A DNA stretch of 64,000 bases from Escherichia coli (lineage in GTDB: Bacteria; Pseudomonadota; Gammaproteobacteria; Enterobacterales; Enterobacteriaceae). Below are positions 19,385-27,696 of the stretch, in pieces. Where the stretch lies: assembly GCF_013122565.1 (NCBI RefSeq), contig NZ_CP053258.1, one strand, 5' to 3'. Below the pieces are notes generated by a model. It ran no database searches. It saw only the letters and a program-made list of their open reading frames with translations, and was not told the DNA's origin. Every line of letters begins with the position of its first letter. The first letter of the stretch is position 1. The translations under genes and the position numbers were made by a program.

Positions 19385-20305
<921 letters not shown>

Positions 20306-20501
20306 TTAATTTTTCGTTTATTATGATGAATCCTCTGCAAATGAGCGAAATTTGATAGAACATTTATCTGCTGTACGATTTAATGAACTTAATGATACAG
20401 CATTACAAAAACAATCGAAGTTTATAAAGATGATTTCTGGTTGACCAGAACCCTACCATACAATGGTGACTAATTTTATTACTCCCGAAGGAGATGATGA
20501 T

Positions 20502-21005
20502 ATGAATATATCATATGTGAATAGCAACAAAACGACATCTTTACCTGTTGAGCTAGATGCACTAAATAATAAAGATATCTCTTATGCCAAAGATTTTTCT
20601 TATGCCAAAGATTTCTTTTTATATATAGAAATACAGTTAAAAATTGCAAAAGATTTTTGTAGACCTGGAGAAGAAGTATCAAGTTCTATTGCAAGTACAG
20701 TTTTTCACGCTTTTATTGATTTAGTTAACAAAATCAGGGGTAAGAAAGATTGTATGTATATTTGCACGCTTTGCTGTTTTGCCGAGGAGGTTAAAGGTGA
20801 TTATTCTCATTACAGGACCTTTTCATTTGATATTGGTAATCAATATAAGGTTAAACTTACACAAAGCGGAAAAAAAGAGCTCTCTTTAACTTTAGAATTT
20901 AACGATACTATAATTGAATCTCAGAAAGTCACAGGCAATAAGGCAAAGCATATTCTTGAGGATATAGAAAAATTCTATCGTAACAAACCCGATACTTATT
21001 ATTAA
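20502..21005 (+). CDS. hypothetical protein, AT-rich, with internal hexapeptide duplication
   Basis: ATG at 20502 preceded by gaaggag (167 aa); alternative in-frame ATG at 20463 (180 aa) lacks an RBS; no recognisable domain. Confidence 0.5.
   Translation: MNISYVNSNKTTSLPVELDALNNKDISYAKDFSYAKDFFLYIEIQLKIAKDFCRPGEEVSSSIASTVFHAFIDLVNKIRGKKDCMYICTLCCFAEEVKGDYSHYRTFSFDIGNQYKVKLTQSGKKELSLTLEFNDTIIESQKVTGNKAKHILEDIEKFYRNKPDTYY
20581..20616 (+). repeat. 18-bp tandem duplication inside the coding sequence (encodes SYAKDF twice)
   Basis: cttatgccaaagattttt followed by cttatgccaaagatttct, 17 of 18 identical. Confidence 0.8.
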
Positions 21006-21226
21006 ATTTAATAATGGTTAGATGTGCAGAAATTATTACTCCGCCCAAAAAAACAGGATAAGGAATTCCAGATAATGAGGATAATCTTAACAATAAAAGA
21101 ACTAACAACGTTTATTATCTCTCACGTAGAACGATGGCATCAAAAAAATCATCTATAAAGAAAGAGTGAAAGCGACGACAATTTAATTTCACTGCAGGCT
21201 GGGTAGCTCCAGCCTGCTTTCCTGCA

Positions 21227-22420
21227 TTACATCACCGCAGCAAACGCCTTTGCCACACGTTGTACATTTGCCGTATTTAACCCGGCGACACACATGCGAC
21301 CGCTGGCGATGAGATAGACACCAAATTCTTCACGTAGTCGGTCAACCTGAGCGACACTTAAACCGGTATAACTGAACATGCCGCGCTGATTAAGCAGATA
21401 ATCGAAATTGCGTTCTGGCATCTCTGTGCTTAATACCTTTACCAGTTCCTGACGCATTGCCAGGATGCGAGTACGCATCTCTTCTACTTCCGCCAGCCAG
21501 CTGGCTTTCAATGCCTCGTCATTCAGCACCGCAGCCACCACCTGCGCACCAAAATTCGGCGGGCTGGAGTAGTTGCGGCGAACTGTTGCTTTCAATTGCC
21601 CCAGTATGCGACCTGCAGCTTCGGCATCTTCACACAGAACAGAAAGTCCGCCAACGCGCTCGCCGTAAAGGGAGAAAATTTTCGAGAACGAATTGCTCAC
21701 CAGAGCGGGTAATCCAGCGCTGGCAATGGCACGAATGGCGTAGGCATCCTCTTCCATACCGGCACCAAATCCTTGATAGGCAATATCAAGAAATGGGATA
21801 AGCTCGCGGGCTTTGAGAATTTCAATCACCGCATCCCACTGGTCATTAGTGAGATCGGCACCCGTTGGGTTGTGGCAACATGGATGCAGCAACACAATAC
21901 TGCGGGCAGGTAATGTTTTCAGCGTCGCCAACAGGTCATTAAAGCGCACGCCGTTAGTCGCTTCGTCATACCAGGGGTAAGTACTTACTTCGAATCCAGC
22001 CCCGGCGAATATTGCTACGTGGTTTTCCCAGGTAGGATCGCTGACCCAGACGCCTGATTCCGGGAAGTAGCGTTTCAGGAAATCTGCGCCCACTTTCAAT
22101 GCCCCTGAGCCGCCAAGGGTTTGAATGATTGCTATGCGCTGTTGTTGCAGTACCGGATGGTCCGCACCAAACAGCAGCGGCGCAATAGCATGGCGATAGC
22201 TGTTAAGCCCTTCCATCGGTAAATAAAGCGAAGCGCCATGAGGCTGCGCATTCAGTCGCGCTTCCGCATCCGCCACGGCTTTCAGTTGTGGAATAATTCC
22301 GTCTTCGTTGTAGTACAGACCGATACTTAAATTCACTTTGTCGCTGCGAGAGTCTTCTTTAAAACGCTCCATAAGCGTAAGAATCGGGTCGCCAGCGTAG
22401 GCGTCAACTTTTTGAAACAC
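21227..22420 (-). CDS. tyrB: aromatic amino acid aminotransferase
   Basis: GTG at 22420 ([14 protein letters not shown]...) gives 397 aa; PLP-lysine region [16 protein letters not shown] ggag upstream; the track extension to 22462 is not supported. Confidence 0.9.
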
Positions 22421-22501
22421 GCGATGGTTCTCCAGGTTTACGGGCAGGTGGTTAAAACACAATAAACCGGAAGAAGGCGAAGATCGAGTGGATGTTCAAA
22501 G

Positions 22502-23506
22502 TCAGTCAGGAAGTTGATGAAGAATTTGCCCCAGTCGATCTTGCAGCGAACCCGAAACCGAAAGATAAGGAATTTTCCTGCGCGATAATTCCTGTTCGTA
22601 CCACGCCTGCTGCCGCGCGCGAAAAGCCTCTCCTTGCCGGGTGCCATCCTGCACAAAGGGGAATTCCGCGCCGCAAAGCACTACCAGAGAGTATTGCCGC
22701 TCCGCCAGCTGGTGAAGTTCTTGCGGAGCATGACCATATTGATCAAGGGTATAGAACAAGGTCGTGAGTGGCGATGTGTCACATATAAGATAGCGATTAG
22801 CTTCTGCTTGTTGTTCCCGACTTACCTGTTCGCGGGCGATATGCAACAAATCGTCTGCGGTTAAAACGCCGTTTTTCTCTTCCCAATAGTCGCGACCAAA
22901 TTCAGCGACATACGCCGTATCGAGCACGTCCGCCAGCGCTTTTGAAAGTGTGCTCTTACCAGTTGATTCGCCACCAAGCAGACAGATACGGCGAACGAAA
23001 CTGCGATAAACGTCGTGCGCCAGCATGTAGCGATAGCGGTGAACGTCGGAACGAATCAGCGTTCCCGAAGGAGATTTATCGCCAAGTGGACGCTGTAATC
23101 GAACGTGTTCAACAGGTTGGGCAAAACGCTGTGCCAACACTTTAGCAAAACCGTCACCATAATCTTCTGCGGTAAATACAGCGTGTGGGCGGCAACGTAA
23201 TACGTGCAGGCACAGCGTCGCTACATAATGACGATGGATGTCCGCATCGGCATCGTTATGCGGTATGGCTGGTAAGTTATAACGCGCGATCAGTTCGGTA
23301 GTCAGTACCAGAACCGTCGCTCGTGGGAAGCGCACTTGCAGCCACATCAGGCGCTTTTCAGGTTCACAGTCAGGCATTTCCGGCACGGAATAACTGATGA
23401 TGAACAGTTCTTCACATTGTGCCAGCGCGGTATTAATCAACCGTTCATGACCACAATGCAAAGGCGCGAATTTGCCAACCACCAGTCCCGTTACGAAAGG
23501 CTTCAT
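22502..23506 (-). CDS. NadR-like bifunctional NMN adenylyltransferase / ribosylnicotinamide kinase without the N-terminal HTH domain
   Basis: ATG at 23506 overlaps the stop of the upstream pnuC-like gene (ATGA); N-terminal GKFAPLHCGHE nucleotidyltransferase HxGH motif; C-terminal GGESTGKST Walker A motif; about 334 aa versus about 410 for regulatory NadR. Confidence 0.7.
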   Translation of the reverse strand: MKPFVTGLVVGKFAPLHCGHERLINTALAQCEELFIISYSVPEMPDCEPEKRLMWLQVRFPRATVLVLTTELIARYNLPAIPHNDADADIHRHYVATLCLHVLRCRPHAVFTAEDYGDGFAKVLAQRFAQPVEHVRLQRPLGDKSPSGTLIRSDVHRYRYMLAHDVYRSFVRRICLLGGESTGKSTLSKALADVLDTAYVAEFGRDYWEEKNGVLTADDLLHIAREQVSREQQAEANRYLICDTSPLTTLFYTLDQYGHAPQELHQLAERQYSLVVLCGAEFPFVQDGTRQGEAFRARQQAWYEQELSRRKIPYLSVSGSLQDRLGQILHQLPD

Positions 23507-24060
23507 GATGCCCGCAGCTCCTTGCGCCACTGATACAAACCATGCCAGGCGTTAATCCAGAACAAGAAATATAAACCGGCGGTCAGGTTTAAACCGCGCG
23601 TCATATACAGAGGCACCGCCAGGGTATTCACCGCTAACCAGACGTACCAGTTTTCGATCCTTCTTCCCATCAACATGAATTGCGCCAGAACGCTGAAGGT
23701 CAAAATCAACGAATCCAGCCAGGGGGCCCAGGCATTGGTAAAGGTGTGGAGCAAAAAGCCGTAGCCGCCTGCCACGACAACGGCACAGAGTAACAAGAGG
23801 AAAAAGTGACTGGCTTGCGTCCGACGCACTGGCAAGACATCGCCACCCTGACCTTTCAGCCAGTGGATCCAACCGGTGATGCTGGTCGCGATGAAGAATA
23901 ACTGGAGCGTGACATCGGCATAGAGTTGCACGGACCAAAAAACCCAGCCATAAAGCATGCTACCAATTATGCCGATCCACCACGTATGCACATTGTTTCT
24001 GGCAGCCAGCCAGACGGAAACCGCGTATGCCAGACACGCGGCGATTTCTGAATAAGACAT
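23503..24060 (-). CDS. PnuC-family nicotinamide riboside transporter homolog
   Basis: 185-aa membrane protein; QLYADVTLQLFFIATSITGWIHW and ENWYVWLAVNTL segments resemble PnuC signature regions; strong SD gggaggg 4 nt before ATG. Confidence 0.7.
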   Translation of the reverse strand: MSYSEIAACLAYAVSVWLAARNNVHTWWIGIIGSMLYGWVFWSVQLYADVTLQLFFIATSITGWIHWLKGQGGDVLPVRRTQASHFFLLLLCAVVVAGGYGFLLHTFTNAWAPWLDSLILTFSVLAQFMLMGRRIENWYVWLAVNTLAVPLYMTRGLNLTAGLYFLFWINAWHGLYQWRKELRAS

Positions 24061-24082
24061 TGTCCCTCCCTGGAGACGGATA

Positions 24083-25162
24083 TTAATCCACGTATTTCAT
24101 CGCGACCCTTGAAGTCAGGCGCGTAATAAGTTCGTAAGCGCTTACTTTCGTCATTTCAGCGATACGTTCTACGGGCAAACCTTCACCCCATAAAATGACC
24201 GGGTCCCCGGCTTTGTCCTGCGCCTGTGGACCTAAGTCTACGCAGATCATATCCATCGCCACGCGCCCGACAATCGGCACTTCGCGACCGTTCACCAGCA
24301 CTGGCGTACCGGACGGCGCGGCGCGCGGATAACCATCGCCATAGCCCATCGCGACTACGCCAAGGCGGGTATCACGTTCGCTTACCCAGGTTCCACCATA
24401 ACCGACAGGTTCTCCGGCTTTATGCTCACGCACGGCAATCAGGCTGGAGGTTAGTGACATCACTGGCTGACAGCCAAAATCGGCACCGGTGGAGCGATCT
24501 TCCAGCGGCGAGACGCCATAAAGAATGATGCCCGGGCGCACCCAGTCAAAATGCGACTGTGGCCACAGCAGAATGCCACCCGATGCGGCAATGGAACGTT
24601 GACCTGGTTTGCCTTCGCAAAAGGTATTAAAGATAGCGAGTTGTTTCTCGGTTGCGCCACATTTTGGTTCATCCGCGCGCGCAAAATGGCTGACGATATT
24701 CACCGGCTGACGAACGTTTTTGCACTGGGTCAGGCGATGATAAAACGCCTCAGCCTGTTCCGGCCTTACGCCCAGACGGTGCATACCGGTATCGAGTTTC
24801 ATCCAGACGGTAACCGGCTCGTCCAGGCTAGCCTCTTCCAGCGCAGCCAGCTGTTCTTCGTTATGCACGGCGGTATGAAAATGTTGCGCAGAAATCGTCG
24901 GTAGATCTCTGGCATCAAAAAAGCCTTCGAGTAACAGTACAGGTTTGGTGATTCCCCCCGCACGCAGTCGCAGAGCTTCTTCGAGACGGGCTACGCCAAA
25001 GGCGTCAGCATCGGGGAGCGTTCGCGCGGTCTCAAGAAGACCGTGACCATAAGCGTTCGCTTTCACCACCGCAACCATTTTACTGGCAGGAGCCAGTTCA
25101 CGAAGACGTTGCAGGTTGTGTCGCAGAGCGCGGCGGTTAATCACAACAGTTGCCGCTTGCAT
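24083..25162 (-). CDS. alr: alanine racemase, biosynthetic
   Basis: 359 aa; PLP-lysine motif [10 protein letters not shown] near N-terminus. Confidence 0.95.
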
Positions 25163-25214
25163 TTGTGTTCCTTGATAAGTGTTTGCTTTAATTACCTAAT
25201 TCATAAAATAATTA

Positions 25215-26630
25215 TTATTCGTCGTCGTACTGCGGCCCCGCATAGTTGTCGAAGCGCGACCATTGACCGTTAAAGGTCAGGCGTACCGTCCCGATTGGGC
25301 CGTTACGTTGTTTACCGATAATAATTTCCGCGATGCCTTTTAAATCACTGTTTTCGTGATACACCTCATCACGATAGATAAACATGATCAAGTCCGCATC
25401 CTGCTCGATAGAGCCAGATTCACGCAGGTCGGAGTTGACCGGGCGTTTGTCGGCACGTTGTTCCAGAGAACGGTTCAACTGGGACAGCGCCACCACCGGC
25501 ACGTTCAGTTCTTTCGCCAGTGCTTTCAGCGAGCGGGAGATTTCTGCAATTTCCAGCGTACGGTTATCGGAAAGTGCCGGTACGCGCATCAGTTGCAGGT
25601 AGTCGATCATGATAAGCCCGATGCCGCCGTGTTCACGGGCAATACGGCGTGCGCGGGAACGCACTTCCGTTGGCGTCAGGCCGGAGGAGTCATCGATATA
25701 GATATTGCGTTTTTCGAGCAAAATACCCATGGTGCCGGAAATGCGCGCCCAGTCTTCATCATCGAGCTGCCCGGTACGGATTTTAGTCTGGTCAACGCGC
25801 GACAGCGACGCCAGAGAACGCATCATAATCTGTTCTGATGGCATCTCCAGCGAGAAGATAAGTACTGGTTTATCCTGCAACATCGCCGCGTTTTCGACGA
25901 GGTTCATCGCAAATGTGGTTTTACCCATCGACGGACGCGCGGCGACGATGATCAAATCCGACGGCTGCAAGCCAGCGGTTTTTTTGTTGAGATCGTCATA
26001 ACCGGTGTTTACTCCGGTAACGCCATCGTGTGGCTGCTGAAACAACTGCTCAATACGCGCCACGGTTGCGTCGAGCACATCGGCGATGTTCTTCGGCCCT
26101 TCGTCTTTGTTTGCACGACTTTCGGCAATTTTAAAGACGCGGGATTCAGCCAGGTCCAGCAGATCTTCGCTGGTACGCCCCTGCGGATCAAAACCGGCTT
26201 CGGCAATCTCATTCGCAACCGAGATCATCTCACGGACAACGGCACGTTCACGCACGATGTCCGCATAGGCACTGATGTTCGCCGCACTTGGCGTATTTTT
26301 GGACAGCTCTGCCAGATAAGCAAAACCACCGACGCTATCGAGTTGCCCCTGGCGTTCCAGCGATTCCGCAAGGGTAATCAGATCGATAGGACTACCGCTT
26401 TCCTGCAAACGCGCCATTTCAGTAAAGATATGACGGTGTGGGCGGGTGTAAAAATCGTCTGCTACCACACGCTCGGCTACATCATCCCAGCGTTCGTTAT
26501 CCAGCATTAAACCGCCCAACACCGACTGCTCCGCTTCGATCGAGTGCGGAGGCACTTTCAGCCCGGCAACTTGTGGATCGCGTTCGCGGGGTTCAGCCTG
26601 CTGTTTGTTGAAGGGTTTATTTCCTGCCAT
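25215..26630 (-). CDS. dnaB: replicative DNA helicase
   Basis: 471 aa; Walker A ARPSMGKTTFA; DnaB family motifs. Confidence 0.95.
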   Translation of the reverse strand: MAGNKPFNKQQAEPRERDPQVAGLKVPPHSIEAEQSVLGGLMLDNERWDDVAERVVADDFYTRPHRHIFTEMARLQESGSPIDLITLAESLERQGQLDSVGGFAYLAELSKNTPSAANISAYADIVRERAVVREMISVANEIAEAGFDPQGRTSEDLLDLAESRVFKIAESRANKDEGPKNIADVLDATVARIEQLFQQPHDGVTGVNTGYDDLNKKTAGLQPSDLIIVAARPSMGKTTFAMNLVENAAMLQDKPVLIFSLEMPSEQIMMRSLASLSRVDQTKIRTGQLDDEDWARISGTMGILLEKRNIYIDDSSGLTPTEVRSRARRIAREHGGIGLIMIDYLQLMRVPALSDNRTLEIAEISRSLKALAKELNVPVVALSQLNRSLEQRADKRPVNSDLRESGSIEQDADLIMFIYRDEVYHENSDLKGIAEIIIGKQRNGPIGTVRLTFNGQWSRFDNYAGPQYDDE

Positions 26631-26712
26631 AGTGAATGGAGTTACCGAGATAAAGAATGGGTCGAAACTTTACCATATGAAGCAGACCCTGACGATACGT
26701 TCTGGAGGACAC

Positions 26713-27696
26713 ATGGCAACACGAATTGAATTTCACAAGCACGGTGGCCCGGAAGTACTTCAAGCCGTAGAGTTCACTCCTGCCGATCCGGCGGAGAATG
26801 AAATCCAGGTCGAAAATAAAGCCATCGGCATCAATTTTATCGACACGTATATCCGCAGCGGCCTTTACCCGCCGCCATCACTACCCAGCGGATTAGGTAC
26901 CGAAGCGGCAGGCATCGTGAGTAAAGTCGGCAGTGGTGTAAAGCATATTAAGGCTGGCGATCGTGTAGTCTATGCGCAGTCGGCGTTAGGCGCTTACAGC
27001 TCTGTGCATAACATTAATGCGGATAAAGCGGCGATTCTGCCTGCGGCAATTTCTTTTGAGCAAGCTGCGGCATCCTTCCTGAAAGGCTTAACGGTTTATT
27101 ATCTGCTGCGCAAAACCTATGAAATTAAACCCGATGAACAGTTCCTGTTCCACGCAGCGGCTGGCGGCGTTGGCTTGATTGCCTGCCAGTGGGCAAAAGC
27201 TCTGGGCGCGAAACTTATCGGCACCGTAGGAACCGCGCAAAAAGCGCAGAGCGCGCTAAAAGCCGGCGCGTGGCAGGTTATTAACTATCGTGAAGAGAAT
27301 CTGGTCGAGCGATTGAAAGAGATCACCGGCGGTAAGAAAGTGCGCGTAGTGTACGATTCCGTGGGCAGAGACACCTGGGAACGGTCGCTGGATTGCCTGC
27401 AACGCCGCGGCTTAATGGTGAGTTTTGGCAACTCATCAGGTGCGGTTACCGGTGTGAACTTAGGCATTCTCAATCAAAAAGGCTCGTTGTATGTGACACG
27501 CCCTTCCCTGCAAGGCTATATCACCACGCGGGAGGAATTAACCGAGGCCAGTAATGAACTGTTCTCTTTGATTGCCAGCGGTGTGATTAAGGTCGATGTC
27601 GCCGAGCAGCAGAAATATCCGCTGAAGGATGCGCAGCGTGCGCATGAGATTCTGGAAAGCCGGGCGACGCAAGGTTCCAGCCTGTTGATTCCATAA
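26713..27696 (+). CDS. qorA: NADPH:quinone oxidoreductase (zeta-crystallin-like MDR family)
   Basis: ATG at 26713 preceded by ggagg gives 327 aa; AAGGVGLIACQ nucleotide-binding motif; the upstream in-frame extension overlaps dnaB. Confidence 0.9.
   Translation: MATRIEFHKHGGPEVLQAVEFTPADPAENEIQVENKAIGINFIDTYIRSGLYPPPSLPSGLGTEAAGIVSKVGSGVKHIKAGDRVVYAQSALGAYSSVHNINADKAAILPAAISFEQAAASFLKGLTVYYLLRKTYEIKPDEQFLFHAAAGGVGLIACQWAKALGAKLIGTVGTAQKAQSALKAGAWQVINYREENLVERLKEITGGKKVRVVYDSVGRDTWERSLDCLQRRGLMVSFGNSSGAVTGVNLGILNQKGSLYVTRPSLQGYITTREELTEASNELFSLIASGVIKVDVAEQQKYPLKDAQRAHEILESRATQGSSLLIP

Follow-up and report, generated by a model that had tools for sequence, protein, structure and literature searches.

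In a stretch of 64 kb from an Escherichia coli genome (contig NZ_CP053258.1, positions counted from its first letter and referred to here as the window), two overlapping genes lie between alr and tyrB, one encoding a PnuC-like transporter and the other a NadR-like enzyme. We favor, with moderate confidence, the interpretation that the two make up a regulator-less module by which a pyridine riboside is salvaged, most likely one leading from nicotinamide riboside (NR) through nicotinamide mononucleotide (NMN) to nicotinamide adenine dinucleotide (NAD). The transporter, with seven transmembrane helices (7-TM), would permit facilitated diffusion of an uncharged or cationic riboside across the inner membrane, after which the C-terminal P-loop domain of the enzyme would phosphorylate the riboside at the expense of ATP, so that the mononucleotide is trapped in the cell, and the N-terminal HxGH domain would adenylylate it to the dinucleotide, NAD. 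Translation of the two genes would be coupled through their ATGA stop/start overlap, as the initial annotation of this DNA had claimed; the same overlap, or a near-overlap, is present in other genera. The order on the minus strand is dnaB, alr, pnuC-like (185 aa), nadR-like (334 aa) and tyrB. Both members of the pair are real genes, chance open reading frames (ORFs) being excluded by the profile scores, the structure matches and the ratios of non-synonymous to synonymous substitution rates (dN/dS) given below.

The first gene had been taken for a PnuC-family member, and its product indeed scores 77.8 bits against TIGR01528, whose cut-off is 42.45, over practically the whole model (profile positions 3-186 of 187), and matches the structure of Neisseria mucosa PnuC (4QTN) at 2.6e-8; its identity to E. 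coli PnuC is 22%. There are seven hydrophobic segments, the gate tryptophans are found in GWIHW at the end of TM3 (residues 63-67) and in YQW at the end of TM7 (residues 176-178), and the ligand-binding motif of TM6 ends in asparagine, as in E. coli PnuC (ENWLLWVIIN) and N. mucosa PnuC. The score above the equivalog cut-off and this asparagine form of the motif both support NR as the substrate. An identity as PnuT or PnuX, the thiamine and riboflavin transporters, was considered and rejected, as the motif does not end in Asp, no riboswitch was found in window positions 21000-27000 or in 13 related loci, and the linked kinase is of the NadR type; in the thiamine-specific PnuT the TM6-motif residue that was mutated is D166 (PMC5749112). 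The gene had also been called short, which is right as to its length of 185 aa, but the truncation that the word implies is not supported. Since the 7-TM core is common to all Pnu transporters, and an extra N-terminal helix occurs in only a few (PMC5749112), 185 aa suffice for a complete minimal transporter. In comparison with N. mucosa PnuC and the other Pnu proteins (PnuT, PnuX and PnuN), the 7-TM core, the WxxW(x)3N motif, the tryptophans at the ends of TM3 and TM7 and the linkage to a kinase are all shared, whereas the extra N-terminal trimerization helix of the 244-aa N. mucosa chain is missing. The genes of Pnu transporters typically adjoin that of the kinase which traps the substrate (PMC5749112).

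The product of the second gene matches TIGR01526 from residue 6 to residue 324 (E = 2e-44; profile positions 3-324 of 325) and also matches four solved NadR-type structures (PDB 9x6f, 8x7f, 1lw7 and 6gye), which bears out the proposed relationship to NadR and refutes the possibility that the protein is unrelated. It begins at the position of about residue 62 of E. coli NadR and has no helix-turn-helix (HTH) domain. Thus the motifs and the alignment to E. coli NadR agree with the initial annotation both on the two domains, a nucleotidyltransferase and a P-loop kinase, and on the missing HTH, and the two motifs that it had named are found at residues 15-21 (PLHCGHE) and 178-186 (GGESTGKST). The alignment with the enzymatic part of NadR runs from end to end, and GKFxPxHxGH, SGTxxR, the Walker A, the Walker B aspartate and the DGxR lid are invariant in the 14 family members aligned, which came from Enterobacterales, Pseudomonas, Andreprevotia, Pseudoduganella and metagenomes; this, too, supports the NR route. 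By alignment, K12, H20 and R152 are the counterparts of K72, H80 and R212 of E. coli NadR, residues for which docking predicted contacts with ATP and NAD, and of which K72, when changed to alanine, gave an 8- to 41-fold loss of affinity for both. The definitions of the Walker B and kinase-domain motifs follow PMC7221760, where an HTH-less NadR with both activities, that of Lactococcus lactis, is also described. The HTH is restricted to enterobacterial NadR, and its absence therefore excludes the regulator subtype and not the enzyme family. The protein belongs to a separate NadR-related orthologous group in which the motifs of both catalytic domains are intact. No PADLOC family matched either protein of the pair at E <= 0.001, and membership in an anti-phage defense system was rejected for want of such a match.

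Table 1. Coordinates of the pair, its motifs and its neighbors in the window (residue numbers refer to the encoded protein; aa, amino acids; CDS, coding sequence; RBS, ribosome-binding site)
Feature	Position	Strand	Remarks
dnaB	25215-26630	-	read from the window sequence
alr	24083-25162	-	stop codon 24083-24085
alr to pnuC-like spacer	24061-24082	-	22 bp, TATCCGTCTCCAGGGAGGGACA; contains the RBS GGAGGGA
pnuC-like CDS	23503-24060	-	185 aa; seven-helix Pnu-family facilitator; RefSeq label pnuC
TM6 ligand-binding motif WxxW(x)3N	23626-23649	-	WYVWLAVN, residues 138-145; motif definition from PMC5749112
ATGA overlap of pnuC-like stop and nadR-like start	23503-23506	-	read from the sequence; translational coupling
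nadR-like CDS	22502-23506	-	334 aa from the ATG at 23506; NMN-adenylyltransferase-like and ribosylnicotinamide-kinase-like P-loop domains, no HTH
Nucleotidyltransferase motif GKFAPLHCGH	23447-23476	-	residues 11-20 (K12, H17, H20); G11, K12, F13, H17, G19 and H20 invariant in the 14-sequence alignment
Loop IPHNDADAD at the canonical YP(N/H)GW position	23240-23266	-	from alignments, profile-based and pairwise, with NadR of E. coli, H. influenzae and L. lactis and with 9x6f
Second nucleotidyltransferase motif SGTLIR	23051-23068	-	residues 147-152; S147, G148, T149 and R152 invariant in the 14-sequence alignment
Walker A GGESTGKST	22949-22975	-	residues 178-186; invariant; aligns with GGESSGKS of E. 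coli and H. influenzae NadR
Walker B region LICDTSPLTT	22760-22789	-	D243, T244 and T248-T249 invariant; aligns with IDTDFVTT of E. coli and H. influenzae NadR
Lid motif QDGTR	22637-22651	-	residues 286-290; Q286, D287, G288, T289 and R290 invariant; aligns with ADGLR/DDGLR of canonical NadR
tyrB	GTG at 22420, down to 21227	-	read from the window sequence
Segment replaced in K-12	22499-24081	.	1,583 bp; counterpart in K-12 is a 173-bp spacer containing a repetitive extragenic palindromic (REP) element; from blastn of the K-12 junction

The packing is as tight as had been described, with 22 bp after the alr stop and 81 bp between the nadR-like stop and the GTG of tyrB at 22420. For the nadR-like gene, an alternative GTG start 8 codons upstream would give a protein of 342 aa, while the ATG is the start used by the RefSeq annotators and in the homologs. 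In RefSeq, the two genes carry the names 'pnuC' and, from the Prokaryotic Genome Annotation Pipeline (PGAP), 'AAA family ATPase'.

Taking coverage of at least 80% of a 1.75-kb region as the criterion for presence, the pair was found in 867 of 5,426 complete E. coli genomes, mostly of phylogroup B2 (UTI89, Nissle, ST131 and 536 among them), which refutes the possibility that it is an ordinary core locus universal in the species. The carriers fall into two allele classes, one of 82 genomes that are 95-99% identical to the window (98.1% at best, 96.3% in strain 536) and one of 785 genomes at about 91% (UTI89, NU14, Nissle 1917, ST131). Canonical nadR is present in 5,424 of the 5,426 genomes and canonical pnuC likewise in 5,424, in keeping with the earlier claim that the pair stands beside the canonical genes. 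The pair is thus an additional copy in essentially every carrier and, by extension from these counts, presumably also in the genome from which the 64 kb of the window were taken. It is annotated as intact coding sequences in every complete genome inspected, and the dN/dS between the window and NU14, which has the B2 allele, is 0.05 for the pnuC-like and 0.14 for the nadR-like gene, so that both are under purifying selection. As a separate observation, the synonymous divergence (dS) between the allele classes (window 22502-24060 against positions 3103-4655 of the NU14 locus L003) is 0.31-0.33 for the pair and 0.08-0.10 for dnaB, alr and tyrB, i.e. about three times higher in the pair; this excess suggests either that the polymorphism is old or that a diverged Escherichia lineage contributed by recombination.

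The neighborhoods of related genes provide a further line of evidence. Scanning one genome per species gave 567 stretches encoding nadR-like relatives, of which the best 80 were kept as loci. A pnuC-like gene is directly upstream of the nadR-like gene in 61 of these 80, across several phyla, the taxa with an adjacent pair including Pseudomonas, Stenotrophomonas/Xanthomonas, Andreprevotia, Chitinimonas, Oxalobacteraceae and Verrucomicrobiota. Two genes precede the pair on the same strand in Andreprevotia (L013:2748-6047, L014) and Chitinimonas (L034:2732-6047, L040), one for an ADP-ribose-responsive repressor of the NrtR family (NF050029, 173 bits) and one for a Tri1/DraG-type ADP-ribosyl(arginine) hydrolase (NF041672, 338 bits), each scoring below its equivalog cut-off, and in Massilia (L078, L083) the hydrolase gene alone is directly upstream of the pair. 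These genera with NrtR or hydrolase neighbors are also the nearest non-enterobacterial relatives of the E. coli nadR-like protein in a neighbor-joining (NJ) tree, which has no support values. In lineages other than those of NadR and NiaR, NrtR is known to regulate NAD metabolism, and operons of pnuC and nadR linked to nrtR have already been described, so that these neighbors lend independent support to the link with NAD. The cluster of NrtR, hydrolase and pair suggests a module for NAD replenishment and de-ADP-ribosylation.

Several findings weigh against the NR-to-NAD interpretation. The enzyme stays well below the cut-offs of the profiles that it matches (152.1 bits against 341.15 for TIGR01526, 93.3 against 201 for NF005988), and its identity to E. 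coli NadR is 28%, over residues 67-357 of the latter, all of which lie after the HTH. The YP(N/H)GW loop shared by 9x6f and the NadR proteins of E. coli, Haemophilus influenzae and L. lactis is replaced by IPHNDADAD, which has no tryptophan and is poorly conserved in the subfamily. The tryptophan of this loop is presumably part of the nicotinamide-recognition loop (1LW7 structure). None of the solved or assayed NadR proteins matched here belongs to the subfamily of the nadR-like protein, and a similarly distant homolog from Mycobacterium tuberculosis has neither ribosylnicotinamide kinase (RNK) nor NMN adenylyltransferase (NMNAT) activity. About 39 of the 80 loci have the nadR-like gene at the end of a longer operon, whose genes overlap and share one strand, and this operon is without a pnuC-like gene in Janthinobacterium, Duganella, Rugamonas and Pseudoduganella. 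Lastly, E. coli already has a working NR route, and it is not obvious what a second one would add.

Some of these points could be accommodated if the mechanism were the same and the substrate another, as in a conversion of nicotinic acid riboside through nicotinic acid mononucleotide (NaMN) to nicotinic acid adenine dinucleotide (NaAD), or of some other riboside or nucleoside-like compound, by which the pair would complement the canonical NR route. Nicotinic acid riboside is the natural candidate among the other substrates. We consider this explanation rather unlikely. In its favor, the loop at the YP(N/H)GW position is both different and variable, the subfamily is set off in the NJ tree as a tight clade, separated from E. 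coli NadR by a long branch, and scores below the equivalog cut-off, and members of the Pnu family are known for thiamine and riboflavin and, by prediction, for deoxynucleosides (PMC5749112). Keeping a paralogous route beside pnuC and nadR would also be easier to explain if its substrate differed. Against it, the transporter scores above the cut-off for an NR-transporter equivalog and its TM6 motif ends in asparagine, the relatives have NrtR and ADP-ribosyl hydrolase neighbors that point to NAD itself, and no riboswitch for thiamine pyrophosphate (TPP), flavin mononucleotide (FMN) or any other ligand was found upstream, either in the window or in 13 related loci.

A second explanation starts from the longer operon, which is located outside the window and outside E. 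coli. Its composition was derived from gene calls and precomputed Pfam hits in Microbulbifer, Verrucomicrobium and Janthinobacterium and includes a MoxR-type AAA_3 ATPase of ~526 aa, a small protein of 157 aa (only in the Janthinobacterium-type locus L088), a helical-repeat/beta protein of ~325 aa with no family match, a protein of 570-630 aa that combines a HEIGHH zincin-like motif with a VWA domain carrying a DxSxS metal ion-dependent adhesion site (MIDAS) motif, a radical-SAM/SPASM enzyme in some lineages, a protein of 194 aa with an invariant C-terminus (...SADKWTRE) and no Pfam domain, and a PaaK-like adenylate-forming ligase of ~450 aa, in addition to the pnuC-like gene, which is usually present, and the nadR-like gene at the end. 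The 194-aa protein has at least 2,894 homologs, and the named entries among the 120 listed are all 'hypothetical'. Three of the operon proteins had no Pfam, PDB or PADLOC match, searches with the partner proteins against NCBIfam and Pfam (with single sequences and with an alignment) and, in the form of profiles, against PDB sequences were uninformative, and a literature search on MoxR/VWA proteins with NadR or PnuC found no report of the operon.

It can be hypothesized that the NadR-like enzyme is mainly the nucleotide-handling part of this MoxR/VWA/ligase system, and that the E. coli pair is a detached remnant which recycles an intracellular product such as NMN and is not meant for scavenging. 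The proportion of loci in which the nadR-like gene closes the operon is in line with such a role, and in Janthinobacterium, Duganella and Pseudoduganella the operon does without the transporter, so that import is not the point there. Moreover, members associated with the operon occur all over the NJ tree, its deepest branches included, and the pair-only forms are derived clades. However, E. coli, other Enterobacteriaceae, Pseudomonas and Stenotrophomonas have kept only the transporter and the enzyme, that is, the set needed for uptake and trapping; the tree, as stated, is without support values; and, with three proteins of the larger operon unmatched, the hypothesis makes no concrete prediction yet. 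We regard it as improbable. A related proposal, in which the NadR-like subfamily would be the nucleotide-handling end of an undescribed but widespread operon that makes, consumes or recycles a pyridine or other riboside nucleotide, and the B2 pair its detached import-and-activation half with a substrate outside the canonical range of PnuC and NadR, is speculative and only slightly less doubtful.

That the NadR-like protein is catalytically silent or non-enzymatic and contributes nothing to the NAD supply, like the NadR homolog of M. tuberculosis (NadRh), which lacks both activities at a similar distance, and as the generic PGAP name might allow, is very unlikely, considering that no catalytic motif of either domain varies across phyla, that dN/dS is 0.14, and that the gene is widely and tightly coupled to that of a transporter, whereas the mycobacteria with NadRh have no PnuC.

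The pair had been described as wedged between alr and tyrB, and this description did not hold, if it is taken to mean an insertion. In K-12 the two genes are indeed neighbors, as had been stated, with an intergenic region of 252 bp (XL1-Blue record), and blastn of the K-12 junction against the window gave 100% identity on either side of the replaced segment, on the alr side as far as the first base after the stop codon and on the tyrB side beginning 78 bp before the GTG. Enterobacter, Kosakonia and Superficieibacter, in turn, have the same order of dnaB, alr, pnuC-like, nadR-like, tyrB and aphA, with a spacer of ~20 bp after alr. The identities of their proteins to those of the window are 92-98% for DnaB, 82-90% for Alr, 83-86% for TyrB, 71-81% for the PnuC-like and 64-71% for the NadR-like protein, and thus scale across the region from dnaB to tyrB as expected for vertical descent. 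We found no direct or inverted repeats flanking the pair and no mobility genes at its locus, and its GC content of 0.52 matches that of its neighbors; an origin from a mobile element was rejected on these three grounds. The simplest reading of the synteny would be that the pair is an ancestral enterobacterial locus, kept in ~16% of E. coli, mainly in B2, and deleted elsewhere. No Salmonella, Klebsiella or Citrobacter entries were among the named top protein matches listed, and loss of the pair appears to have been frequent.

The alternative, which concerns the origin only, is that the pair is an island recently acquired between alr and tyrB in this lineage. It would explain why 84% of the complete E. 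coli genomes are without the pair, and the dS of 0.31-0.33, which exceeds that of the flanking genes some threefold, would be in line with import from a donor that had diverged. Nevertheless, we give it hardly any credence, in view of the identical synteny and spacing in three other enterobacterial genera with identities as in vertical descent, the lack of flanking repeats and mobility genes, the GC content, and the REP element that occupies the empty site in K-12.

Two observations on the sequence around this site may be added. The empty alr-tyrB site of K-12 (L002:3022-3273) has the REP element GCCGGATGCGGCGTGAATGCCTTATCCGGCC, and the sequence upstream of position -78 of tyrB is wholly different between carriers and non-carriers of the pair. 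On the other side of tyrB, between it and aphA, there is an AT-rich segment (GC 0.30-0.31; window 20200-21100) with an ORF of 180 aa (20463-21005) that contains a short internal repeat, SYAKDFSYAKDF. The counterparts of this segment are the small gene yjbS in K-12 and a frameshifted hypothetical gene in the closest complete genome, while in NU14 the neighbor of tyrB is a 2-oxoglutarate-dehydrogenase-E1-like gene. The segment makes a second spot of variation next to these core genes.

As for expression, no Rfam match at E <= 1 was obtained in window positions 21000-27000, and no NadR box with up to 3 mismatches was found between 21444 and 26006. Only the RBS hairpin, which has no T-run, resembles a terminator after alr. 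Promoter-like matches numbered 4, where 3.6 were expected, which is the level of chance, and the closest of them, inside alr (24273-24246; 9 of 12 matches), is not above chance either. Since there is no convincing terminator after alr, no room for a promoter in the 22 bp and no NadR box or riboswitch, we infer that the pair is transcribed by read-through from alr. Transcription is probably by this route or from a weak promoter inside alr. With read-through from alr, expression of the pair would escape repression by NAD-bound NadR, unlike that of the nadA-pnuC operon. Riboswitches that could inform on the ligand were likewise absent from the 13 related loci that have the pair only. The best NadR-box-like site of the whole window, TGTTTACCGTAATAAAAA with 1 mismatch, lies at 59963-59980 between the genes for a SorC-family regulator and a short-chain dehydrogenase. 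Altogether the window has 50 NadR-box-like matches with up to 3 mismatches and its shuffled versions 27, an excess that probably reflects the composition of AT-rich intergenic DNA and not real operators.

In comparison with NadR and PnuC of E. coli and Salmonella, the order of the enzymatic domains, the HxGH and SxxxxR motifs, the Walker A and B motifs, the lid and the partnership with a Pnu-family protein are alike, whereas the HTH and the YPHGW loop of those enzymes are both missing from the nadR-like protein, and no NadR box is near the pair. Also, the canonical nadR (at 4.63 Mb) and pnuC (behind nadA) are unlinked, but the pair forms one operon; its enzyme is 28% and its transporter 22% identical to the canonical protein. 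The closest parallels in gene arrangement are the HTH-less NadR proteins whose two-domain enzyme adjoins pnuC, as in L. lactis (6GYE), in the nadR-pnuC-nrtR operon of Streptococcus and in the nrtR<>pnuC-nadR arrangement of Hahella, and the NrtR-family regulator over the pair in the relatives of the E. coli protein resembles the Streptococcus and Hahella operons in this respect. The L. lactis enzyme itself differs in belonging to another orthologous group (75 bits to the family profile) and in having kept the PNGW loop.

With NadR and PnuC of H. influenzae (1LW7), the pair would share the proposed sequence of diffusion through PnuC, trapping by the kinase and adenylylation to NAD, while H. influenzae NadR scores 105 bits (E = 4e-29) against the family profile over its enzymatic part, and the route is essential there and an accessory second copy here. 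The initial annotation had spoken of a Haemophilus-type arrangement. This is apt for the mechanism, where uptake is driven by the NadR kinase, as proposed here by analogy. The operon form is documented for Hahella and Streptococcus; in H. influenzae, pnuC and nadR are presumably unlinked. M. tuberculosis NadRh is alike in being a distant homolog, at ~28% identity to canonical NadR, and in having no HTH; it differs from the E. coli protein, with its coupled PnuC and intact motifs, in that it lacks a PnuC partner and shows no detectable activity.

NadR enzymes without an HTH are well known, as are pnuC-nadR operons, both genes of the pair already carry RefSeq annotations, if generic ones, and to a specialist in NAD metabolism the pair will come as no surprise, as HTH-less modules of PnuC and NadR are the rule outside enterobacterial NadR. 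Our literature search found nothing specific on the pair in B2 or uropathogenic E. coli strains or on HTH-less NadR in proteobacteria. What is new, in a modest way, is the separate orthologous group, its occurrence in B2 E. coli beside the canonical NadR and PnuC, the ancestral site between alr and tyrB, and the connection of the pair, through its relatives, with NrtR, ADP-ribose genes and a MoxR/VWA/ligase operon not described before. A better label than 'AAA family ATPase' would be 'NadR-type NMN adenylyltransferase/ribosylnicotinamide kinase-like, HTH-less'. An active pair would give about one sixth of E. coli genomes, including major extraintestinal pathogenic lineages of B2 and the probiotic Nissle 1917, a second route from NR to NAD. 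Having neither the NAD-sensing repressor domain nor a NadR operator, this second route could run while the canonical one is repressed, which may have a bearing on NAD homeostasis in host niches and, more speculatively, on the recovery from NAD-consuming stresses.

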